Shown: one piece after another, positions 1,157 through 13,148 of the stretch
Numbering within the stretch: position 1 is the stretch's first letter
Layout of the letters: the number at the start of each line of letters is the position of its first letter
NCBI GenBank assembly: GCA_007376195.1
Contig: VMFT01000002.1
Coordinates: 1,273-65,272 of the forward strand
DNA from: Parcubacteria group bacterium Gr01-1014_29
GTDB lineage: Bacteria > Patescibacteriota > Minisyncoccia > Ryanbacterales > 2-02-FULL-48-12
Length of the DNA: 64,000 bases
Direction: 5' to 3'
The notes under the pieces: generated by a model
The model's database searches: none
What the model saw: only the letters and a program-made list of their open reading frames with translations
What the model was told of the DNA's origin: nothing
Translations under genes and position numbers: made by a program

Positions 1157-1795
1157 ATGATACACTATTGTCATACTATGAAAAGTAAGAATAATCTTCT
1201 AGAACAGCTCAAATCCTTACCCCATTTCGGGAAGAATACTGTATATCAGCTTGGCAAACAGTTGGGGCTCAAGGACTCTACGGTTAATACCTACATTAGC
1301 CGTTTTTTGAAGTACAAAGAAATTATCCAGCTCAGGAGAGGGTTGTATGTGTCTGCTGATTTTTTTGATAAAAATAGGAACGATGTTTCCTATTCATTCT
1401 ATCTTGCCAATGTCATTCGAACGCCGTCATATATCAGTTCGTGGGCGGCGCTTCAGTATTACAACCTTGCTACGGAGGCGATCCACTCTGTCACCTCGGT
1501 CACACCTAAAGTGACAAAAGAATACCAGACAAAGGCCGGTAATTTCGCATATCAGTCAATCAGCAAAAATTTTTTCGCAGACTTTTCTTTGGCAAAAGGA
1601 AAGTTTGATTTCTATATAGCTTCTCCCTCCAAAGCATTGTTTGATTTGCTCTATTTGAGGACCCGTCAGTTCAATAACCTTTCAGTAGAACAGATAAAAG
1701 CAATGGTTTCAGAATTAAGGATAGACATTGATGAAATGAGTAAGGAAGAGCAGGATAAATTTTATTCAATGATTAATAAATACTCCCATGAGTGA
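1157..1795 (+). CDS. AbiEi-family antitoxin / wHTH transcriptional regulator (type IV TA)
   Basis: N-terminal winged-helix region with the ...RLRRGLY... motif typical of AbiEi. The 3' end overlaps the next gene by 8 nt. Start could instead be the internal Met at 1178. Confidence 0.55.
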   Translation: MIHYCHTMKSKNNLLEQLKSLPHFGKNTVYQLGKQLGLKDSTVNTYISRFLKYKEIIQLRRGLYVSADFFDKNRNDVSYSFYLANVIRTPSYISSWAALQYYNLATEAIHSVTSVTPKVTKEYQTKAGNFAYQSISKNFFADFSLAKGKFDFYIASPSKALFDLLYLRTRQFNNLSVEQIKAMVSELRIDIDEMSKEEQDKFYSMINKYSHE

Positions 1796-3071
1796 ACAGA
1801 TTTCAACAATTCTAAAACGTAAGCTTGATGATCTTGCCGCCTACGGCAGTCTTGATGCGGAAACGCGCCGTAATGCTCTGAAAGGAGAGTTGCAGTTTTA
1901 TGTTCTCAATTTCATTTACCATCACCCGGAATACAACGCGTGGATCATGTATGGCGGTTCGGCACTTCGTATTATCCATGAGCTTGACCGCATGTCAGTT
2001 GACTTGGATTTTGAGATTTCTCATGCGGTAACGGAGAAGTTTTTAGAGGAATTGAAAAAAGAAGTTGAGGATTACTTCACTAATACCTTTGGCGCGGGAG
2101 CTGATTTTCTTACGATAAAAATAATCACCGGTAGAGGTCTGCTCTTGAAGTTCCACGTTGGTGAAGAGCTAAGCTCCGGACACCCCTCAAAGCAGGTGCA
2201 TGTAAAAATTGATCTCAATCACTTTGTCGCTCCCAAGACTGTCACTGAACGTCGGCCGATAAACCGCAATCAGTTATCCTTTGTGATCATCACCTACAAT
2301 ATGTCCTCGCTTATGGCGAGCAAGCTTGCCGCTATTTTCCTCCGTGGTACCCGTGGCGTGGGAGAAGCAACTTACGAGGAAAAAGGACGCGATATTTATG
2401 ATCTCCTTTGGTACATGAATAAAAAAGTAGTGCCAGACTTCGATTACCTCATAGCCAAAGGCATTGACGCGAAAGACCCTCGCGCGCTTTTCGATAAACT
2501 CACGCTTCAGATCAACAAAGTGAGCGATAAAAATCTTGAGCAGGACCTTGAGCCTCTGTTTGTGGATAAGACGTATATTAGAAATTTGCTCAAGAACTGG
2601 CGAGAGAGCTATCTACGACTTTTGGATGAATATAAAATTCGCAACATTAAAGAACTCGAGAGTATTGGTATACATCAGGACTTTCGCACAGATACTTTTT
2701 CTTTCGTGTATTGGTATACGACGGAGGACGGCGGATCGATCAGGGTTGTTTATAACCTAAGCGAGTACTGGATTATATTCGGCGAGGGTAATTTGCAGGT
2801 TGAAATAGATAAGAAACTGGAAGAGAGGATGGATTTCAGGAGCAACAGGGTTAGCAGTCGTCCGACTTCGCAGGATAGGCTTAAGCAGTACGCGACCCTG
2901 TTTTATCAGAAAACGGAAAAGTACTTCAAGAAAACGAATCGGATCATGCTCGGGGACAGCATTATCACTAAGATTATTCGGATAACGGCCGATAATTTGA
3001 ACCAGAAGGAACAGATCGTGCTTAATAAGTCGGCACTGCTTTCTTGTGAGCTTGATGACTTACTGAAATAA
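1788..3071 (+). CDS. AbiEii/AbiGii-family nucleotidyltransferase toxin (DUF1814) with about 130-aa C-terminal extension
   Basis: Motif MYGGSALRIIHELDRMSVDLDFE matches the GG(T/S)ALR...S.DlDF nucleotidyltransferase signature of AbiEii. Translationally coupled to AbiEi. Confidence 0.6.
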   Translation: MSEQISTILKRKLDDLAAYGSLDAETRRNALKGELQFYVLNFIYHHPEYNAWIMYGGSALRIIHELDRMSVDLDFEISHAVTEKFLEELKKEVEDYFTNTFGAGADFLTIKIITGRGLLLKFHVGEELSSGHPSKQVHVKIDLNHFVAPKTVTERRPINRNQLSFVIITYNMSSLMASKLAAIFLRGTRGVGEATYEEKGRDIYDLLWYMNKKVVPDFDYLIAKGIDAKDPRALFDKLTLQINKVSDKNLEQDLEPLFVDKTYIRNLLKNWRESYLRLLDEYKIRNIKELESIGIHQDFRTDTFSFVYWYTTEDGGSIRVVYNLSEYWIIFGEGNLQVEIDKKLEERMDFRSNRVSSRPTSQDRLKQYATLFYQKTEKYFKKTNRIMLGDSIITKIIRITADNLNQKEQIVLNKSALLSCELDDLLK

Positions 3072-3817: not shown

Positions 3818-4070
3818 GGTTCACCTCGCGTTTGTCAGATTTGTTCTTGATATAGCATACGGAAATATTTTTGTAAATGTCAACAAAGGGAGTTGACATT
3901 ATATTTATAAAATGTTAGCACTGGAAATGGTATAGAAGCAAAAATCAAGCTCTTTGACATATACAACTAGGACTTACGTGTTTGTGTATATTCTGGCTTT
4001 TTCTTTTCTGTCATTCTCGCGCAGGCGGGAATCCAGGACATTGTCAGTAATAGAAAAGGAGTGATTGGAA

Positions 4071-4889
4071 ATGAGCACAGCAAGGACACGCAAAGCAACA
4101 CACCAGGGTTCTAAACATCTCCAGCTTGGGTTTAATAACCAGGACGGGGTACTTTTGGAGTCTTTCAATATACCGGCTTTTGGGAAACAATATACCGTTG
4201 GCATCGTATGTGACGGCTGTACTGGGCTTCCTGGGTTTAGTAAAACCGAGGTCGGCGCGAGTATTTTGCCGGTTTTTGCGTTCGGACGGTGTCAAGAGTT
4301 CTTGTGCGCCGGTCTTCCGCTCGCGGATATACCGATGGTACTGTTTCAATCATGCACAGAATTCTTGCGCGATTTGGCGCAGAAGGTTATGCCCGGAAAT
4401 ATTTATTGGGGATATTCGGAAGTGTTGAGCACCGCTTTGGCAAAACTCAAAACGGGTCGCAAGGGTTGGGACAGTACTACACGCTTTCGCATCGACTATC
4501 TTTCGGCGACGCTGCTTGGTTTCGTTACAGACGAAACGCAATTAGTTACGTTTACGGCTGGCGACGGCATCGTGCTGGTAAACGATGACATTCGCGTTAT
4601 TGACCAGGACGACAAACCAGAATATCCGGCGTCTTCGATCAACAGCCCGGGAAAGGGATTTGACGTACATGTCTTGAGTCTCTCCGAAGTGCAGAGAGTT
4701 GCCATTTGTTCGGATGGGTTAAAGGAACTTATGCAGGACCAAAAGTTTGTGGACCAGATGTTTTCGTTCAGTCCCGGACTGTTCGGATTGCAGATTCTCC
4801 TTAACAATACCTACAGCGAACGTGATCACCTTATGGAGGATGATTGTACGGCGGTTACATTCGAAAGGAGCGATGAGCCATGTACCTAG
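4071..4889 (+). CDS. PP2C-family Ser/Thr protein phosphatase
   Basis: PP2C metal-binding motifs: NQD, GIVCDGCTG (xxDGxGG-like), CSDGL, DDCTAV. Strong RBS aaaaggag 9 nt upstream of the ATG at 4071; the ORF track starts at TTG 4065. Confidence 0.6.
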   Translation: MSTARTRKATHQGSKHLQLGFNNQDGVLLESFNIPAFGKQYTVGIVCDGCTGLPGFSKTEVGASILPVFAFGRCQEFLCAGLPLADIPMVLFQSCTEFLRDLAQKVMPGNIYWGYSEVLSTALAKLKTGRKGWDSTTRFRIDYLSATLLGFVTDETQLVTFTAGDGIVLVNDDIRVIDQDDKPEYPASSINSPGKGFDVHVLSLSEVQRVAICSDGLKELMQDQKFVDQMFSFSPGLFGLQILLNNTYSERDHLMEDDCTAVTFERSDEPCT

Positions 4890-6844
4890 TGAATGGCAAG
4901 AAATATGATGAAGATCCAAGCCGCAAACTTGGTGGCGGGTCTGAAGGTTCGGTGTATCCATTCGACGGCGACCCGGATAATACATGCGTCAAACTTTGGC
5001 ATCCAGTTGATCCGAAAGATCGTTCCGGACAGCAGATTGCGTTATACCGTGCAAAGAAAGTAAAAGCTGTTACGGGTCTTAACCTTCATTTGCCAGAACA
5101 GTTCATTCTCCCAAAACTTCCCGCACAAGACGGTAAGGGAAATATTATTGGCTATCTCATGCGACGCGTGCCGAAAGAGTATGTCAAGTTGATGAAGTTG
5201 CTTCAGCCAGCGTTTCGAACCAACAATTCGATTGGGTTGAAAGATATTGCGTTGTTGTACGCTTTTTTCTTCGAGGACTTGGAGGTACTTCAGAAGAATA
5301 GTATCTCGGTGGGGGACGTAAATCTTGGCGGCAACATGGTGAGATTCACCTCGAAAGGGATTGAGCGCGTATGGGTGGATACCGATAGTTGGAGCTATCC
5401 AGGATTTCCCTGTCTCGCTACAACGGAAATGTTCTGTCATCCGGATTTGTATGCAAACCTTGGGTCTGGTGGCAAATTTGTGCCGCCTATGCACAAGCAT
5501 GACTGCTTTGCATTCGAGGTGGAATTTTGTCTGCTGGCTCTGCCGGGAGCTCACCCATTTCGAATGGGGTTGCATCCGAGCGTTACCAGTCTTCAGGAGC
5601 GCGCAGAGGCGGGGATTACCATTTTCGATTCTAGTGTAGCTTATCCAAAGTACTTGCCATCTCCAGATGTGCTAAGTGATGAGTTGCTTCACGAACTTAT
5701 TCTCCGGTTGAAGCGGAAAAAGGAGGAACCGCTTCCTGCCAAACTGCTTCGGGATTTTGCCGAACAGTTGGTCGTATGCGCGAAGTGCAGCGAGCAGTAT
5801 CATCGCTCGCGTTCAAATTGTCCGAAGTGTCAGGAGAAAACCATAGTCGATCTAAAGAAATTGATCGAGCTCATAATCCAAGAAGTCTATGCCGCTTCGG
5901 AAGCGATTTTATACACGCAAGTTGTCGACAGTACACTTTTTGTGGTTTGTCGAGTTAGCGGGATGATACACATCGTAACTATTGATGAGAAAGGAGGTGT
6001 AGATACACTTGTAACTTTCATTTCAGCTCTCCGTGGTATGCGGTACCGATTCTTTGGATCACACCTGGTTGTGTGTCCTGATGTGTACGCTGATGCGCCC
6101 GTGCCGATTCAGATTTATAGGATTACAGGTAGCACGTTGCAGATGGTGCAGAATATAACAACCAACGGTCTCGAAAACGAGTCGGCGGTATTCGATGTGT
6201 CGTCACGGTTCATGTACCGTACGGCGGGCAACACTCTCCTGTGCGGGAAATGGATGTTTGGCGGCAAGGTCTTTGGTGAAGATCCTGTTACACAGGTGCA
6301 TCAAACGCAGAGCTGGTTTACTGTGGATCGCACATCCGGATTAGATCGGGAAGCGATATTCGGTTATGACCGTGCTCTTCGCGATATGCAATGGTTTGTT
6401 GTGAAGGGAGACAAGGCCGGAGAGAAGTTCGATTTTCACAACGTTACTCTTCCTGCAATGCGCGCGGGGGAAAGACTGGAAGATTTTGCAGTGGATTTCG
6501 GTGCGGATGCTGTGCTGTTGGTGCGGCAAACCCTTTATCAAGGCCGTCAATATATTCGGTATTCCATCATTGCTCTTAACGGGGTTGTGGTGGAAGATCG
6601 TGTGTTGAGGAGCGGAGATAATGGGTATGACGCATGGGAGAGTATTCACGGCAAATTGTTCCAAAAATCGAGCATTCTTCATGTAACTCCCTTGGGCGTC
6701 GTAAAACAGACGCTCCTGAACAATGCCTATGAACTTGTGGAGGATACGCGCGGTGTGGTGACGGCGGAGGATTGGCTGTTTCGGTTCAACAAGAGTGTCG
6801 GCATTGCACGACGTGGTGCCGTGCTGACAATGAGAAAAAAGTAA
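4880..6844 (+). CDS. atypical Ser/Thr protein kinase-like protein with internal Cys4 zinc ribbon and large C-terminal domain
   Basis: Gly-loop LGGGSEGSVY, Lys in VKLW, catalytic-loop-like SVGDVNLGGN, DFG-like VDTDSW, zinc ribbon CAKCSEQYHRSRSNCPKCQ. Overlaps the PP2C stop by 10 nt; RBS aaaggag. Confidence 0.55.
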   Translation: MYLVNGKKYDEDPSRKLGGGSEGSVYPFDGDPDNTCVKLWHPVDPKDRSGQQIALYRAKKVKAVTGLNLHLPEQFILPKLPAQDGKGNIIGYLMRRVPKEYVKLMKLLQPAFRTNNSIGLKDIALLYAFFFEDLEVLQKNSISVGDVNLGGNMVRFTSKGIERVWVDTDSWSYPGFPCLATTEMFCHPDLYANLGSGGKFVPPMHKHDCFAFEVEFCLLALPGAHPFRMGLHPSVTSLQERAEAGITIFDSSVAYPKYLPSPDVLSDELLHELILRLKRKKEEPLPAKLLRDFAEQLVVCAKCSEQYHRSRSNCPKCQEKTIVDLKKLIELIIQEVYAASEAILYTQVVDSTLFVVCRVSGMIHIVTIDEKGGVDTLVTFISALRGMRYRFFGSHLVVCPDVYADAPVPIQIYRITGSTLQMVQNITTNGLENESAVFDVSSRFMYRTAGNTLLCGKWMFGGKVFGEDPVTQVHQTQSWFTVDRTSGLDREAIFGYDRALRDMQWFVVKGDKAGEKFDFHNVTLPAMRAGERLEDFAVDFGADAVLLVRQTLYQGRQYIRYSIIALNGVVVEDRVLRSGDNGYDAWESIHGKLFQKSSILHVTPLGVVKQTLLNNAYELVEDTRGVVTAEDWLFRFNKSVGIARRGAVLTMRKK

Positions 6845-6871
6845 CCCCAAACCCATGAAAGGAGTACAGTA

Positions 6872-7945
6872 ATGACTACTGTCAAAATTGCGGCACACAT
6901 GCCGCTTCTCTACACGCCCAAGTTCTGGGCTCCGGCGAAAGCTTATGAGAACTACACGCCGGATATCGAGGGGGCCAAGCTCGAAGGCGCTGAATACGCT
7001 CGTAAGCATGGTCTCGAGCCTGCGTTCAGACTGTTGGAGCGGCCGGAGGGTGCCAGTATGGCATTTCTTACAGACTTACAACAGGACTTCCGTGATCATG
7101 GAAGATTGCCGGTTACTGGTACGGATGATGTTGTCCTTCGATGTGCCTCGCGCCTCATCAATGGATTTATTTCCGGCCATTATGCGGGGCTGAAACGTTC
7201 TAAGGATGGGCATCCGCCGGTGCATGTTTCGTTTGGCACATACTTTCGAACGCAAACAGGGGAGTTGTTCGATCTGCGGACACGCAAAGCATCTATCCTT
7301 GCGTTGGAAGATGATAAAAAGTGTATTTTCAAGGCTACATGTTTCGATCCGAGTGATGGTTCTCCCGTCGACGCGGGATACATTCAGCCCATGTACAAGC
7401 CACATGAATGTGTGGCATACAACCATTATCTGGAAAGTACAGGACAAGCACCGCAGTGGGCATTTGCCCAGCATTGTGAACTTGGTACGGACGGCGAATC
7501 GTTCCATCCGCTCATTGTCGAGGCAGTTGCTTTCGCGAGCGGGTTACGGAGCTTTGTTCCGGGACTGGTTAGCAAGGGGCATATCATGGAGTGGGATTGG
7601 TATGGCCCGCTCTGTTCGTGCGGAGGATATTCGGAGGATCCAAACATTGTGCCGGTAATTACCCACCCGCAAGGTGGGTTCCAGAAAGACATTGTCGATG
7701 GGTTCAAACCCTTTCGGAGTGTCGAATTCTTTGGGGTCGCGGAAGACTTCTGCGATTATTGGATGAAGAAGCAGAGCCGGTGGTATTTCAGAGGAACGGA
7801 GTTTCTCAAAAAGATGGTATTCGTCGAAGATGGCACTGCACCCATCGTCCCGAATGCCCAGCATGTGAAGACCCAGAATGCTGAAGCGAGGGCCGAAGGC
7901 GTGAAGTTCATTAAGCACGATACACCTTTCGCGCAATCGCTGTAG
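6872..7945 (+). CDS. isochorismatase-family cysteine hydrolase, nicotinamidase (PncA)-like, with about 100-aa internal insertion
   Basis: AFLTDLQQDF..G.LPV.G.DDVV...RLI aligns to PncA ALLLVDLQNDF...LAVPEGD...RLI. FHPL, the catalytic-Cys region GVAEDFCDYW (cf. GLATDYCV) and VFVEDG (cf. VITDG) are all present. RBS gaaaggag. Confidence 0.5.
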   Translation: MTTVKIAAHMPLLYTPKFWAPAKAYENYTPDIEGAKLEGAEYARKHGLEPAFRLLERPEGASMAFLTDLQQDFRDHGRLPVTGTDDVVLRCASRLINGFISGHYAGLKRSKDGHPPVHVSFGTYFRTQTGELFDLRTRKASILALEDDKKCIFKATCFDPSDGSPVDAGYIQPMYKPHECVAYNHYLESTGQAPQWAFAQHCELGTDGESFHPLIVEAVAFASGLRSFVPGLVSKGHIMEWDWYGPLCSCGGYSEDPNIVPVITHPQGGFQKDIVDGFKPFRSVEFFGVAEDFCDYWMKKQSRWYFRGTEFLKKMVFVEDGTAPIVPNAQHVKTQNAEARAEGVKFIKHDTPFAQSL

Positions 7946-8029
7946 AGAAGTGCATCATCGGAGGCGGTGACTCTCATTGCACCGCCCCCAATTTTTCATC
8001 AACAACCAAACAGTCAAAGGAGAAAATCC

Positions 8030-8905
8030 ATGCCAACAAAATCAGTTGACCCAACAATCGCGGCATTCTTCAAAGATCCTGATGCGAGCAGTGTTGTGGG
8101 ACTTAAGGCATCTCAAATCGTTGCGCCGATCGTGCGCGGCGAAGACGTGAGGCCGGAAGAGCTTATGATGGGTGGCGGCTTGCGCATTGTCCAGTTTGTA
8201 CTCGATCGTTCTCCGAGCATGGAGCCGGTGGGCAACATGCTTCGGGAGGACTTCAACACAGAGTTCGTACCGGCGGTGAAAGAGGCACGCGAGGATGATA
8301 TCAGTGTTCTGCGTATCGGCGGCACGTCGTTTTCAACCGACATCGAGCCGATTTGGAAGGGAAAAGGTTTATCCGGAGTCACTGAATATTATCATTCCAT
8401 CGATAATCTTCCAGCACTTACTCGCGCTGAATACGATCCGGAGAGAGGCTACACAACGGCACTTCATGATGCTATCCTCGACGGTACGGCACGTGCTCTG
8501 AAGTTTGCCGCGGACCAACAGCAAAAGACAGGTACGGCGCCTGATGTGGATGTGATTGTCTTAACTGACGGAGCCAATAACTGTAACCCCAGAGATCCTG
8601 CGGTAGTGAAAGATATGGTTGTGGGCGCAAACAAACGGCGAGTGCGGTTTATCTTCTTCTACTTCGAAACAGGTGACGGTCTCGAAAACCCGAAAGACTA
8701 TGCCGTTAGTGAGCTAGGTTTTGACGGTGAGAATGTCATGGAGTTCAAACAGGGGCCAGGCGAAACGAAGGAAGAACGCCGCAAGCGTTTCCGGCGCATG
8801 ATGCGGGTGATGAGCAGGGTCTCGGCATCCAAAGGCATGAGCGCTGTTCAAGCGGCCGCGACGCAACAAGTTGCCACCGCAACTGATGACGAAGATCTTG
8901 TCTAA
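8030..8905 (+). CDS. von Willebrand factor type A (vWA) domain protein, TerY-like
   Basis: MIDAS motifs DRSPSM (DxSxS), TALHDAI (Thr) and VIVLTDGANN (D). RBS caaaggag 8 nt upstream of the ATG at 8030. Confidence 0.6.
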   Translation: MPTKSVDPTIAAFFKDPDASSVVGLKASQIVAPIVRGEDVRPEELMMGGGLRIVQFVLDRSPSMEPVGNMLREDFNTEFVPAVKEAREDDISVLRIGGTSFSTDIEPIWKGKGLSGVTEYYHSIDNLPALTRAEYDPERGYTTALHDAILDGTARALKFAADQQQKTGTAPDVDVIVLTDGANNCNPRDPAVVKDMVVGANKRRVRFIFFYFETGDGLENPKDYAVSELGFDGENVMEFKQGPGETKEERRKRFRRMMRVMSRVSASKGMSAVQAAATQQVATATDDEDLV

Positions 8906-8917
8906 AGGAGTAGGACA

Positions 8918-9157
8918 ATGGCTTCTTTAATACAGCTCACCATGCTTGCTGAACTTACAGTAAAAGAAGTGAAAGCAAGCAAACTTCCTCTGGAGGAAGT
9001 TGATCTTGTGGAAGTCGCGGCTATCCTCATTCACGCAAAGCACCTTGATGGAAATACTGAGGGTCAGGCCGAGGTGAGTACGGAAGGGTGGCCGGATGTG
9101 TCCCTCGCATGGAAATCCCGTTATAGAAACCTTGCGAGACAGTTCTTTCAAAAGTAA
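8918..9157 (+). CDS. hypothetical small acidic protein (79 aa), last gene of the operon
   Basis: RBS taaaggag; 12 nt after the vWA stop; followed by a terminator. Confidence 0.4.
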   Translation: MASLIQLTMLAELTVKEVKASKLPLEEVDLVEVAAILIHAKHLDGNTEGQAEVSTEGWPDVSLAWKSRYRNLARQFFQK

Positions 9158-9172
9158 GCAGTTCATTTACCG

Positions 9173-9198
9173 GACCTCCCGAGAGGTCCGTTTTTATT
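9173..9198 (+). terminator. rho-independent terminator
   Basis: ggacctcccgagaggtcc hairpin followed by gtttttatttg. Confidence 0.5.
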
Positions 9199-9547
9199 TG
9201 GCATCCTTGCTAGATCAGTAGTTATATGATAAAAACCCGGAGGTTATTTTCAAGAGCGACGCGTTTGAGGGCCGCGAGCACGAGATCATCGGAAAGGAAT
9301 ATGCAAAGAGAATTAAAATTGTCCGCGATGTTGTGGACCATTCGTCCACAACGGAAATTTTAAGAGAAGCATCAAAACGACCTTATTGAGTTGGCGTGAT
9401 ATCAACGGTGAAACATCACATACACTAGGCATATGATCCCACTTTGAGCAGTGGGATTTTTTTCGTCGTAATATTCCATTCAATAACTGTTCGTTGTTTT
9501 TTAATCATTAGTTTTCTATTATTGTGATATGTCATACTGGTATTTCC

Positions 9548-9668
9548 ATATGAATCCCGTTAGAGATCGCAGACGCATAAAACTGATGCTAATCAAAAAG
9601 CAAAACAGTATTAATCACCATAAACACATAGGACGCGAGGCTTGTTCGTCTGCGTCTTATCTCTAACG
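9548..9668. repeat. long imperfect inverted repeat (arms cccgttagagat..cgcagacgc / gcgtctgcg..atctctaacggg) enclosing about 60 nt and ending at the HD-gene start codon
   Basis: Arms read directly; the right arm ends 2 nt before the ATG at 9671. Confidence 0.4.
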
Positions 9669-9670
9669 GG

Positions 9671-10267
9671 ATGAACAAAATTTTTCGTCATTTTCTTGAT
9701 CGCTCGCTTTCGCATGTGGTGCGCTTTAACAGCACTCCTCAGCAGTTTGGGGAATCAGTGGCGGAGCACTCGTTTTATGTTGCATATTTCACAAGCATTT
9801 TGATTTACTTTTTGCGCGAGGCAGGGGAAGAGGTGGACGAGGCGCGCGCGTTAAAAATTGCCCTTCTGCATGATGCGGAAGAGAAATTTAGCGGCGATAT
9901 TCTTACGCCGTTTAAGCATTACAACGAGGATGTGTTGCGCGCGATTCGCAAGGTAAATCAGGAGACGATCTCGTTTGTGTTTGAAGATTTACCTCCGGAT
10001 TTAAGCGCGGAATTTATCGCGTTGTGGAACGAAGATGTTAATCTTACAACCAAAGAAGCACAGATTGTCAAAACTGCCGACAAGGTATCTCTCCTCGCAA
10101 AATGTTACGAAGAAATTAAGATCGGCAACGAATTTTTCCTCCCTATTTATGAACGGGAACTGGGAAGACTCTCCGCGCTTTCATGGCCGTGGTGGCGAAA
10201 GATCAAAAAGCATATCCTTCCCCACCGCCGGACTCCCATACCGCTTCCGGTGGACCATTTGCATTAA
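9671..10267 (+). CDS. HD-domain phosphohydrolase, YfbR-like 5'-deoxynucleotidase
   Basis: SVAEHSFYVAY ... ALLHDAEEKFSGDI match the HD motif and YfbR-like context. Confidence 0.55.
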   Translation: MNKIFRHFLDRSLSHVVRFNSTPQQFGESVAEHSFYVAYFTSILIYFLREAGEEVDEARALKIALLHDAEEKFSGDILTPFKHYNEDVLRAIRKVNQETISFVFEDLPPDLSAEFIALWNEDVNLTTKEAQIVKTADKVSLLAKCYEEIKIGNEFFLPIYERELGRLSALSWPWWRKIKKHILPHRRTPIPLPVDHLH

Positions 10268-10362: not shown

Positions 10363-10563
10363 TTAAAACCGTGAGGCACGGCTGTGTCTCGAGAATCTAT
10401 TACTTCGTCCACTGCTACCTCTGCTAGAAAAACCGCGTCCAAAAGCAGGTCGGGTACGCGTGCGCGGGCGCATTACTTTTTGAAGCGCCAGGAGCTCTTC
10501 CGAGACGCTCTCGGGGTACAGATGCTTGACAGCAGTGGCAAGTAAGGTATATGATAAAATCAT
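10363..10563 (-). pseudogene. duplicated 3' fragment of the DEAD-box helicase gene (C-terminal tail copy)
   Basis: Encodes ...ESVSEELLALQKVMRPR..., identical over 17 aa (about 50 nt) to the C-terminus of the helicase at 11773..12993, then diverges. Confidence 0.45.
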
Positions 10564-10584: not shown

Positions 10585-10806
10585 ATGACTACCTTATCTG
10601 TGCCGGTGCCGCCAAAGTTGGAGGAATTGGTAAATTCTTTGGTGAAAAGAGGGTATGGGGCAAATAAAGCGGATGTTGTGCGAAAAGCCCTCGAGCTTCT
10701 TGCGGAGGAAGAAGCCATTAAGACCGTGCGGGAAGCGCAACAGGAAGTGCGCGATGGTAAAGTGCTCAAAGGAGACATTCGCAGGCTTATCAAGAACATG
10801 CTGTAA
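10585..10806 (+). CDS. ribbon-helix-helix type antitoxin (ParD/CopG-like)
   Basis: 73-aa protein with a predicted N-terminal beta-strand plus helices; stop overlaps the toxin ATG (TAATG). Confidence 0.5.
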   Translation: MTTLSVPVPPKLEELVNSLVKRGYGANKADVVRKALELLAEEEAIKTVREAQQEVRDGKVLKGDIRRLIKNML

Positions 10807-11069
10807 TGATCGGATTGCAATACGCGCCAAAGTTCTTGAAGCAGTTGAGTAAGCTGGATCCTGCTCTCCAAAAAGAGGCGTTTGCGAAGATTGAGCTCTT
10901 CAAGGACAAGAAAAACCATCAATCCCTAGAAGTACATAAGTTGCAGGGAAGGCTTTCCGGCAGCTATGCATTCTCGGTCAATTACAAAGATCGGATTGTT
11001 TTTGATTATGTTTCAAAAAGCGAGGCTGTTTTGCTTGCTATCGGGGATCATGATGTTTATAAAAAGTAA
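10806..11069 (+). CDS. RelE/ParE-family toxin (mRNA interferase)
   Basis: ...LQGRLSGSYAFSVNYKDRIVFDYVS...AVLLAIGDHDVYK shows RelE/ParE hallmarks. Confidence 0.6.
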   Translation: MIGLQYAPKFLKQLSKLDPALQKEAFAKIELFKDKKNHQSLEVHKLQGRLSGSYAFSVNYKDRIVFDYVSKSEAVLLAIGDHDVYKK

Positions 11070-11180: not shown

Positions 11181-11672
11181 ATGGTAGTCATTGTTGTCAA
11201 AGATAATCGTCCGTTGAAGTTCGCGGTTGCTGTTGTAATTAGAAGTATAGATCGGAAAATGCTTTTTGTTGTACAACGGCCTCCCGACGATGATGAGTTT
11301 CCCGACATGTGGGGATTGCCTTCCGCAAGTGCGAAGCGTGGTGAGCTTCCCGAAGAAGTTGTGCGGCGCATTGGACGCGAAAAGCTCAATGTAGAACTCA
11401 CGCCGAATTGGTTTCTTGGCGTAAAATATGCCGAGCGAACTAATTACAAACTCATCTTGATGGATATGTGCGCTGACATTGCGGAAGGTGCTCTGAATGT
11501 CCGAATTGCAAACGTTCGCAACCGCGCAGTACCTGGTACAAAGTATGTTGACTGGCGGTGGGTGGAGGGTCTGGACATTCTCAAAGAAGCCGCGTCGCGC
11601 GGTTCCATCTGTTCGCAGATTCTTCTGGAGTATGAAGGTGTGGACTACCCAGACAAGAGGCACTTTAATTGA
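11181..11672 (+). CDS. Nudix-like hydrolase (degenerate Nudix box)
   Basis: GLPSASAKRGELPEEVVRRIGREKLNV approximates the Nudix box Gx5Ex7REuxEExGu. Confidence 0.35.
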   Translation: MVVIVVKDNRPLKFAVAVVIRSIDRKMLFVVQRPPDDDEFPDMWGLPSASAKRGELPEEVVRRIGREKLNVELTPNWFLGVKYAERTNYKLILMDMCADIAEGALNVRIANVRNRAVPGTKYVDWRWVEGLDILKEAASRGSICSQILLEYEGVDYPDKRHFN

Positions 11673-11772: not shown

Positions 11773-12993
11773 TTATCTATGAGGGTTGGTTCGGGGCGCG
11801 CGGTTGGTTCTTACGAATGGGCGCGGGCCGCCGCTTCGAGGTGAGAAACTGCGCTGTGTCGGCCAGCTGGCGGATTGCTGATGTCTGCTTGTGCGCCCGC
11901 GCGGACGGGGGCGCATTACTTTTTGAAGCGCCAGGAGCTCTTCCGAGACGCTCTCGTGGCGTTTTACCAGAAGTGTTTTACGGATAAGGCGCTCAATAGC
12001 GCGAATTTCTCCTTGCTGGTCGGGGGTGGCCAGAGATATTGCCTTACCCTCCCTACCCGCGCGGCCCGTGCGCCCGATGCGGTGCACGTAGTCTTCAGAG
12101 CTTTCGGGTATGTCAAAATTTACCACTAACTCAATATTGACGACGTTGATGCCACGCGCGGCTATGTCAGTAGCCACAAGCACGCGATATTTTCCTTTTT
12201 TGAACCCTTCCAGCGCTTCACGGCGCTGGCCCATTGTTTTGTTTGAGTGTATTTCTACAGCACGTTCCCCAATGTCGCGGAGGTGCCGCGCGAGCTTTGA
12301 TGCGCCATGTTTTGTGCGCGAGAATATCAGAATGGTGCCCGCATGTTCCCGGAGAAGCGTTTCAAGGAGGGAAATTTTTGACTCCTTTTTTACTATATAT
12401 ATTTCCTGCTCTGTCGCTTCTATGGTGGTGCCCGCGGGCGCGACCTCAACTCGTACAGGGAGCGTCATGTGACGTGTGGCAATGGATACGATGGTATCCG
12501 GCATGGTTGCAGAAAACAGCATGGTTTGGCGCTTGCCTGGCTCCGGCAAGGCTTCAAAGATGATGCGTATTTGCGGAGCAAAGCCCATGTCAAACATGCG
12601 GTCGGCTTCGTCAAGAACCAGAATGGTTATGTTGCCAAGCGAGACAGTTTTTTCTCCAAGATGGTCAATGAGACGTCCGGGAGTCGCGATAATAATGTGA
12701 GGGCCTTGCCGCAGCTGGTCAATTTGACGCGGCATGGATTCGCCTCCTATGAGTACTGCGGTGCGAAGTCCCAGCGGATGCCCGATTTTCTGAAGCATAT
12801 CGTTTACTTGCAAGGCAAGTTCGCGCGTGGGGAGCACCACGAGCCCGCGTGCGCGGTGCTCTGCGATGCGTTGAATCATAGGTATGCCGAAGGCAAGGGT
12901 CTTGCCGGTGCCGGTCTGCGCGATGCCGATAATGTCTTTTCCTTCGATTGCCGCAGGAATAGATTGGTGTTGAATGGGGGTTTCTTGTGTCAT
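11773..12993 (-). CDS. DEAD-box ATP-dependent RNA helicase with RG-rich C-terminal tail
   Basis: Motifs AQTGTGKT, PTRELA, DEAD, SAT and HRIGRTGRAG. Start taken at the Met preceding TQETPIQ; the ORF track extends to 13077. Confidence 0.75.
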   Translation of the reverse strand: MTQETPIQHQSIPAAIEGKDIIGIAQTGTGKTLAFGIPMIQRIAEHRARGLVVLPTRELALQVNDMLQKIGHPLGLRTAVLIGGESMPRQIDQLRQGPHIIIATPGRLIDHLGEKTVSLGNITILVLDEADRMFDMGFAPQIRIIFEALPEPGKRQTMLFSATMPDTIVSIATRHMTLPVRVEVAPAGTTIEATEQEIYIVKKESKISLLETLLREHAGTILIFSRTKHGASKLARHLRDIGERAVEIHSNKTMGQRREALEGFKKGKYRVLVATDIAARGINVVNIELVVNFDIPESSEDYVHRIGRTGRAGREGKAISLATPDQQGEIRAIERLIRKTLLVKRHESVSEELLALQKVMRPRPRGRTSRHQQSASWPTQRSFSPRSGGPRPFVRTNRAPRTNPHR

Positions 12994-13148
12994 ACATGTG
13001 TGACCCGATTTCCTTTCGTGGGTCACACATCTTGCGAGAGATGACACAAATAAGGCGCGAGTCTTTAATAAAAGCAATTATACCACATTCATATATATTT
13101 TGCAAGGACTGATGGCTGGGGCCTTTTTGATATACTATAAATGGTACC

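Follow-up and report, generated by a model that had tools for sequence, protein, structure and literature searches.

A 64 000-nt stretch of Parcubacteria group bacterium Gr01-1014_29 DNA (contig VMFT01000002.1; 'the window' below means this whole stretch) carries a cassette of four adjacent genes which combines a switch of the TerY-P/YegI type with a PncA-type enzyme; the feature is real, conserved and, to our knowledge, undescribed. The genes code for a PP2C-type Ser/Thr phosphatase, a Ser/Thr kinase, a nicotinamidase-fold hydrolase and a von Willebrand factor A (vWA) protein, in this order, and the cassette is a four-gene module specific to the Candidate Phyla Radiation (CPR; Patescibacteria). 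Nicotinamidase opens the Preiss-Handler route of NAD salvage by converting nicotinamide to nicotinate and NH3. We think it probable that the cassette is a TerY-P-type phospho-switch dedicated to this enzyme; most of the uncertainty concerns the direction of phosphorylation and its target. Because related genomes carry the cassette inside an NAD recycling cluster, it looks like a new control on the salvage of NAD and not like a system against viruses.

An earlier examination of the letters alone (the sequence-only reading) had described a five-gene operon here. All five open reading frames (ORFs) were found in the same orientation on the + strand, at 4065-4889, 4880-6844, 6872-7945, 7967-8905 and 8918-9157, and the description of the operon stands. 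Each of the four large ORFs has dozens of full-length homologues (45-85% identity), thus these are real genes and not chance frames. The PP2C gene (4065-4889) codes for 274 aa if read from TTG 4065; its likely start is ATG 4071, located 9 nt after the Shine-Dalgarno (SD) sequence AAAGGAG. The kinase gene (4880-6844, 654 aa) overlaps it by 10 nt; the nicotinamidase gene (6872-7945, 357 aa) follows after 27 nt. The vWA gene should be read from ATG 8030 (8030-8905, 291 aa) within the listed frame, as this start is supported by an SD sequence at 8016-8022 and by the alignment, in which all orthologues begin there; the gap between the nicotinamidase and vWA genes is therefore 84 nt and not 27 nt or less. 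The gene of a 79-aa acidic protein (8918-9157) comes 12 nt later. Thus, with intergenic distances of -10, 27, 84 and 12 nt, the spacing first reported (0-27 nt or overlaps) is right for three of the junctions and wrong for the one before the vWA gene.

Judged from alignments and a predicted structure, the 6872-7945 product is a nicotinamidase-fold (PncA/Pnc1-type) cysteine hydrolase that putatively hydrolyzes nicotinamide, an activity for which its place in the pncA slot of L015 and in NAD clusters (see below) speaks indirectly; it does not fall outside the isochorismatase family to which the sequence-only reading had assigned it. The catalytic triad D68, K235, C294 is invariant in 40 sequences and aligns to D10, K111 and C156 of Escherichia coli PncA (hhalign 96%, E 2e-9); the metal site D112/H114/H118/H201 (H201-C202) is invariant in the same set, and the motifs DGHPxxHxS and HCxxGTxG align with PncA as well. 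The N-terminal motif resembles those of two solved nicotinamidases. In the Foldseek search of PDB with the AlphaFold (AF2) model (pLDDT 93), which shows an isochorismatase-like alpha/beta fold, ranks 1-10 were all taken by nicotinamidases (E 1e-9 to 2e-7, TMt 0.74-0.78), and a search of viral structures returned only nicotinamidases of giant viruses, with no link to phages. The protein has a helical extension of 60 aa at its N-terminus and family-specific insertions at approximately residues 125-195 and 245-272. Some copies of the enzyme carry, in addition, a conserved N-terminal extension of ∼240 aa with the motif GLCGRxxRG..PE[DE]F.TLTDD (loci L011 9218-11008, L024 904-2688 and L034 10958-12724; also P0028, P0035 and P0042), which had no sequence match in Pfam, NCBIfam or PDB.

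The kinase gene product consists of three parts: a YegI-type Ser/Thr protein-kinase domain (residues 1-296; 4880-5767), a Cys4 zinc ribbon (residues 297-320; 5768-5839) and a seven-bladed beta-propeller (residues 331-653; 5870-6844). The product has no Pfam match, and the search of PDB sequences gave nothing but zinc-ribbon noise; the atypical kinase proposed from the letters was confirmed by predicted fold and by homology. The N-terminus of the AF2 model (pLDDT 90) matches in Foldseek the kinase domains of ULK1, ASK1, Aurora B and CaMKII (TMt 0.6-0.66). Profile alignment identifies the protein as a homologue of E. coli YegI (hhalign probability 98%, E 1.7e-13), with the aligned residues 13-318 running through the zinc ribbon; BLASTP identity to YegI clusters is ∼26%. 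In the alignment of 48 sequences the glycine loop G18/G20/G23 as well as K38, D146, N148, D167 and T182-E183 are invariant, while S170, which is kept in 47 of the 48, aligns with the activating serine of YegI, the autophosphorylated S162 in REL606 numbering or S164 in MG1655 (preprint 10.1101/819920). The VGDVN catalytic loop and the DxDS activation segment are as in YegI. When YegI was added to the query alignment, the homologue search returned mostly enterobacterial YegI clusters and no intermediate contexts.

The Cys4 ribbon noticed in the sequence-only reading was verified: C300, C303, C314 and C317 are invariant in 48/48 kinase sequences. The ribbon has weak matches to zinc ribbons of the HypA, RING and eL40 kinds and is followed by a short disordered linker. 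The C-terminal domain of ∼350 aa is present as had been stated, but the label 'of unknown function' can be replaced: the region is all-beta in the AF2 model (pLDDT ∼90) and, by this model, is a seven-bladed beta-propeller, whose top Foldseek PDB matches are the N-terminal propellers of clathrin heavy chain (E 2e-8); LRRK2, with its kinase-WD40 arrangement, was matched too. No transmembrane segment is apparent, nor is there a helical hairpin in the predicted C-terminal fold, and the protein appears to be cytoplasmic.

The phosphatase assignment was upheld by a match to PF13672 (PP2C_2) above the gathering score, with E 1.9e-8, and by the metal-binding Asp motifs D27, D50-G51, D167-G168, D217-G218 and D259-D260, which are invariant in 15 orthologues. 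The vWA assignment was upheld as well, although the match to PF00092 is weak, its E of 1e-3 falling short of the gathering score; among 11 orthologues, 7 match this profile, the best with E 4.6e-6. The MIDAS motif (metal-ion-dependent adhesion site) is complete, with DxSxS (D59/S61/S63), T143 and D180 invariant among orthologues, as is RFRxxxxVxSxVSA of the Ser-rich, basic C-terminal tail. A profile search of PDB with the vWA alignment gave nothing. We regard the protein as a likely vWA-domain protein; the hhalign comparison with YegL gave 2%, which does not tie it specifically to TerY/YegL.

Thirty related loci (numbered L001, L002 and so on) were scanned for the cassette genes with tblastn, jackhmmer and hmmsearch. 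The single-sequence searches yielded full-length homologues in ∼60 clusters for the enzyme and ∼69 for the kinase at 90% identity; the homologues are 44-86% identical to the queries, and the contigs of the two sets have matching sizes. In every locus with enough sequence the order PP2C-kinase-nicotinamidase-vWA was found on one strand (the window, L001, L002, L004, L007-L009, L011-L013, L018, L021, L023, L025 and L028-L032), with the PP2C gene always opening the cassette and the vWA gene always next after the nicotinamidase gene. Thus, the genes that the sequence-only reading had taken for one system are tightly co-conserved in relatives rather than unlinked. The exhaustive profile search extended the kinase-ribbon-propeller family to 264 representatives of 50%-identity clusters (E<=1e-30), most of them aligned end to end. 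Two distant members that were looked up, L034 (kinase E 3e-135) and L035 (E 3e-87), retain the cassette order; the enzyme of L034 has an extra N-terminal domain, and in L035 an extra ORF for a Cys-rich protein of 196 aa (9325-9915), with no family match, separates the nicotinamidase gene from the kinase gene. Across CPR classes, identity remains at 45-55%. The other named sources all belong to CPR (Saccharibacteria/Saccharimonadales, Adlerbacteria, Peribacteria, Paceibacterota and Parcubacteria); for this reason the cassette-bearing contigs L010 (1.6 kb, a Chlorobiaceae bin) and L016 (15 kb, a Gammaproteobacteria bin) are probably mis-binned.

One could argue that an ordinary housekeeping pncA is merely co-transcribed here with an unrelated Ser/Thr signalling triad, with no functional coupling between the two, as operons of reduced CPR genomes often mix functions and the enzyme is able to work alone (see L015 below). 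However, every cassette locus, the distant L034 and L035 included, has the enzyme gene inside the triad, after the kinase gene and before the vWA gene; among the loci scanned neither the triad nor the kinase family was ever seen without the enzyme, and such persistence in a family of 264 clusters at 50% identity would not be expected of a neutral neighbour. We consider such hitch-hiking very improbable.

What ties the cassette to NAD salvage is its neighbourhood. NAD genes were sought in all loci with the proteins of the L015 cluster and E. coli PncB as queries, and the identities were confirmed by Pfam and NCBIfam. An NAD-salvage gene (nrtR, pncB, nadD or nadE) was found within 10 kb of the cassette in 14 of 22 loci and was directly adjacent to it in 11, so that the link to NAD and nicotinamide, suggested earlier from the presence of the enzyme, turned out to be much stronger than the sequence alone had shown. 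The nrtR gene is directly upstream of the cassette in L013, L018, L023, L028, L031 and L032; pncB directly adjoins it in L009 and L012; in L013 and L018 the cassette is immediately followed by nadD. In L029 the genes run nrtR-nadE-pncB-cassette on one strand; in L034 the cassette is followed by nadD, pncB, the gene of PRPP synthase and nadE; in L011 pncB, nadE and nadD are upstream and nrtR is downstream. Since these arrangements vary by lineage, the association of the cassette with NAD genes must have survived rearrangement. A uridine-kinase-like gene (PF00485) stands directly after nrtR in L001 (14941-15837) and directly after the cassette in L008 (12168-13046); the two are 75% identical and may code for a nicotinamide-riboside kinase or a related salvage kinase.

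Upstream regions in these clusters have in common a 21-bp palindrome, tAGTGTA-N5-TACACTa. Its exact core, GTGTA-N5-TACAC, has 7 matches in ∼330 kb of loci, all in NAD/cassette clusters, with ∼0.06 expected per 64 kb. With at most one mismatch, nine loci (L001, L011, L013, L018, L023, L028, L029, L031 and L032) have it ahead of the PP2C gene, and the same palindrome also precedes nrtR, pncB and the stand-alone nicotinamidase gene of L015. The palindrome is a candidate NrtR operator, as its sequence fits the published consensus (21-bp symmetry, core GT-N7-AC; binding is relieved by ADP-ribose; PMC2330246). A full-text literature search found no description of NrtR regulons in CPR.

In L015 the nicotinamidase gene occurs alone, in the pncA slot, divergent from nrtR-nadE-nadD-pncB. 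The enzyme would thus be autonomous in salvage and the triad accessory to it. A loop of the enzyme, D262..HPQGGFQ271, is conserved in the cassette copies and is not conserved in the stand-alone copy of L015; this gives a weak hint that residues 262-271 may be a contact surface. As the enzyme exists without the triad, no triad lacking the enzyme was seen, and the loop is cassette-specific, we expect that the triad controls the enzyme. The opposite direction has to be considered, though: the nicotinamidase-like protein may be the input of the triad, its occupancy or acyl-enzyme state reporting nicotinamide/NAD turnover to the propeller-kinase, which would then phosphorylate other targets in the cell, such as functions in growth or host attachment of the epibiont. 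The constant company of the enzyme and the loop found in cassette copies only are compatible with this as well, the large propeller of the kinase is suited to protein binding, and the NAD-cluster context fits equally well. Still, the fully invariant catalytic triad and metal site point to a working enzyme, the same enzyme stands by itself in the pncA slot of L015, and no conserved downstream target gene lies beside the cassette. We see the use of the enzyme as a sensor as possible but rather unlikely.

If the triad does control the enzyme, the following chain of events could be proposed. Consumption of NAD would release ADP-ribose and nicotinamide; ADP-ribose would lift repression by NrtR, as is established for this regulator family (PMC2330246). 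The cassette would be transcribed along with pncB, nadD and nadE. The kinase would autophosphorylate on the conserved DxDS serine and then phosphorylate the nicotinamidase, the Ser-rich tail of the vWA protein or both, whereupon the MIDAS site of the vWA protein would bind or release a partner, and PP2C would reset the switch. The beta-propeller could serve as a docking or sensing surface, with the enzyme loop 262-271 as the candidate contact site. The net result would be post-translational gating of the entry of nicotinamide into NAD resynthesis, on top of ADP-ribose-dependent transcriptional control.

Several observations weigh against an NAD-salvage switch of this kind. The sequence-only reading had a PncA-like hydrolase between the kinase and vWA genes, and while fold and active site bear this out, the family profile does not: the 357-aa protein had no Pfam match at E<=1, PF00857 being missed altogether, and with NCBIfam PRK11609 it scored 26 bits, over the N-terminal motif only, against a cut-off of 174. 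Given the missed PF00857 and a score so far below the NCBIfam PncA cut-off, the substrate of the enzyme could differ from nicotinamide. Two of the three triad members could not be aligned with their E. coli counterparts at significant levels (hhalign of the vWA profile versus YegL 2%, of the PP2C profile versus PphC 10%). The related loci are not all phylogenetically independent, and 8 of the 22 cassette loci have no NAD gene within 10 kb. The window is of the latter kind, with no NAD gene in its 64 kb and no NrtR-type box at one mismatch or fewer; as nine related loci have the box, it belongs to the family and not to the window copy. Finally, there is a report of modules resembling TerY-P that act as defence systems (Gao et al. 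2020, cited after PMC11090510).

This last point leads to the reading that had first been suggested for the window: a TerY-P-like anti-phage or abortive-infection system with a nicotinamidase-like effector, one that, for instance, would destroy nicotinamide so that NAD could not be rebuilt. The composition of PP2C, kinase with zinc ribbon and vWA does fit the published description of TerY-P (PMC11090510), and the window cassette, which has left the NAD cluster and has no NrtR box, sits between toxin-antitoxin (TA) modules. About 1 kb upstream, at 1157-3071, the gene of an AbiEi-like antitoxin (NF047376, E 7e-4) overlaps by 8 nt with that of an AbiEii nucleotidyltransferase toxin (PF08843, E 2e-20); downstream there are a YfbR-like HD gene (9671-10267), a TA pair similar to HigB, and a NUDIX-like gene. 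However, TA modules are nearby in the window only; flanks in other genomes are made of NAD-salvage or housekeeping genes, with NrtR-type boxes, and are no defence islands. PADLOC models matched none of the five proteins, the sole vWA hit being PD-T4-10_B at E 0.02. No copies were found on viral contigs by scans with the enzyme and kinase profiles, or on plasmids by blastn. The cassette keeps its 45-55% identity across CPR classes and has a stable chromosomal location in related genomes (the flanking genes folD and murL are conserved in L001, L002 and L030), and the enzyme occurs alone in an NAD operon in L015. The defence interpretation is not supported by this comparison, and we hold it to be improbable.

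Some other features of the window surroundings were recorded. A perfect 14-nt inverted repeat (ATCCCGTTAGAGAT at 9554-9567, ATCTCTAACGGGAT at 9659-9672), whose arms are separated by 91 nt, extends to the start codon of the YfbR-like HD gene, and a second terminator-like hairpin is located at 9435-9458. Genes of HD phosphohydrolases (YfbR-like or HD_4) were seen a few kb downstream of three cassettes, in the window (9671-10267), L030 (15368-15973) and L029 (11170-11712), in contexts that are otherwise different. A 60-nt direct repeat with 93% identity (10457-10516 and 11900-11959, 1443 nt apart) duplicates the 3'-end of a DEAD-box helicase gene (11773-13077, minus strand) and brackets the HigB/RelE-like TA pair (10585-10806 and 10806-11069) and the NUDIX-like gene (11181-11672); the segment looks like an insertion of ∼1.4 kb with target duplication.

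The operon ends, as had been proposed, with a single terminator: a strong intrinsic one at 9171-9198 on the + strand, CGGACCTC-CCGA-GAGGTCCG followed by TTTTTATTT, with an 8-bp stem that has 6 GC pairs. On the promoter side, TTGACA at 3954-3959 (+ strand) inside the element CTTTGACA may tentatively be taken as a -35 element, with low confidence; in the window, L004, L007, L012, L017 and L018 such an element stands at a distance of 60-110 nt before the start of the PP2C gene, and a simple promoter scan of the region upstream of the window cassette gave no full sigma-70 match. Upstream of the cassette, between divergent genes, there is also a palindrome, AATGTCAAC-N7-GTTGACATT, at 3876-3900. As an operator common to cassettes it was rejected, since it occurs once in the window and in none of the related loci; it may be an operator of local use or a terminator that works in both directions.

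The 79-aa protein does close the operon in the window, but it should not be counted as a component of the system. Its homologues were found only in the two closest relatives, at the same position, L007 (64% identity) and L018 (35%); in other loci the slot is empty or filled by unrelated small ORFs, and the family profile searches (Pfam, PADLOC, NCBIfam) gave no match. The gene is a lineage-specific local addition and not a core component.

Regulation of bacterial NAD salvage is known at the level of transcription (NadR, NiaR, NrtR). A dedicated kinase/phosphatase/vWA switch around a nicotinamidase is not described in the literature that we searched: the full-text search gave no paper that links nicotinamidase with PP2C/vWA/kinase cassettes, and a 2026 preprint on kinases of the oral microbiome does not mention the kinase-ribbon-propeller family. 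The impression of the sequence-only reading that this composition had not been described before is thus shared by us. If our interpretation is true, this would be the first case of Ser/Thr phosphorylation and vWA-mediated control in bacterial NAD salvage, layered on transcriptional control by NrtR. Such control may be central to the handling, by metabolically dependent CPR epibionts, of a cofactor that they are unable to make de novo; that tiny, precursor-scavenging genomes often keep a 5-kb cassette suggests that gating of nicotinamide recycling matters to this lifestyle.

The cassette offers, furthermore, a concrete client enzyme, with a colorimetric assay, for a triad of the TerY-P type, whose mode of action is hypothetical, and it would give a testable functional paradigm for the long-uncharacterized YegI-PphC-YegL triad of E. 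coli. One could speculate that TerY-P/YegI-type triads in general are all-purpose phospho-switches that can be dedicated to one metabolic enzyme, here nicotinamidase; we find this generalization attractive but would put its chances at somewhat below even. A caution also follows: not every cluster of PP2C, kinase and vWA genes is a defence system.

The known system closest in composition is the TerY-P triad, reportedly described by Anantharaman, Iyer and Aravind in 2012. According to Bell et al. 2024 (PMC11090510), it joins a vWA protein and a PP2C phosphatase to a Ser/Thr kinase that bears a zinc ribbon at its C-terminus; the E. coli triad is yegL(vWA)-pphC(PP2C)-yegI (preprint 10.1101/819920). 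The cassette has parts of the same three kinds, with a likely vWA domain in the third, and the resemblance noticed at the outset is supported. The pphC and yegI genes overlap in most E. coli strains (preprint 10.1101/819920), as the PP2C and kinase genes of the cassette do, and the kinase domain of YegI is homologous to that of the cassette kinase, the DxDS activation serine included. There are differences as well. The order vWA-PP2C-kinase of TerY-P is replaced in the cassette by PP2C-kinase-X-vWA, X being the inserted nicotinamidase gene, in accord with the earlier remark that the order is rearranged and the vWA gene is fourth. YegI has two transmembrane segments and a helix-hairpin-helix annotation (preprint 10.1101/819920), whereas the cassette kinase would end in a soluble beta-propeller; in the defence version of Gao et al., according to PMC11090510, the kinase C-terminus has an OB fold. 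The vWA and PP2C proteins of the cassette are too diverged to be tied to YegL and PphC. From TerY-P defence systems the cassette differs in having no PADLOC match and in its context, which is NAD salvage and not restriction or defence.

With PncA/Pnc1 the cassette enzyme has in common its fold, its Asp-Lys-Cys triad and its metal site of Asp and His residues, as well as being associated in genomes with pncB, nadD, nadE and the regulator NrtR. It is longer, 357 aa versus 180-216 aa, with the helical N-terminal extension of 60 aa, an insertion of ∼70 aa rich in beta structure and a second insertion, in a loop; its divergence puts it beyond the reach of PF00857, and it is embedded in a kinase/phosphatase/vWA cassette.

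The NrtR regulon as described by Rodionov et al. (2008, PMC2330246) includes no Ser/Thr kinase, PP2C or vWA gene, the four mentions of 'kinase' in that paper being to metabolic kinases. In the loci related to the window, in contrast, nrtR genes (NUDIX plus the NrtR winged helix) adjoin the cassette, and 21-bp GT-N7-AC palindromes stand upstream of nrtR, pncB, nicotinamidase and cassette genes, although the window copy is without a box. As for the succession of a kinase and a propeller, the same architecture is present in LRRK2-type kinase-WD40 proteins, the C-terminal half of LRRK2 being a Foldseek match, and in bacterial kinase-propeller proteins; the likeness is one of architecture only. In the cassette kinase a zinc ribbon serves as the linker, and the protein seems to be cytoplasmic.

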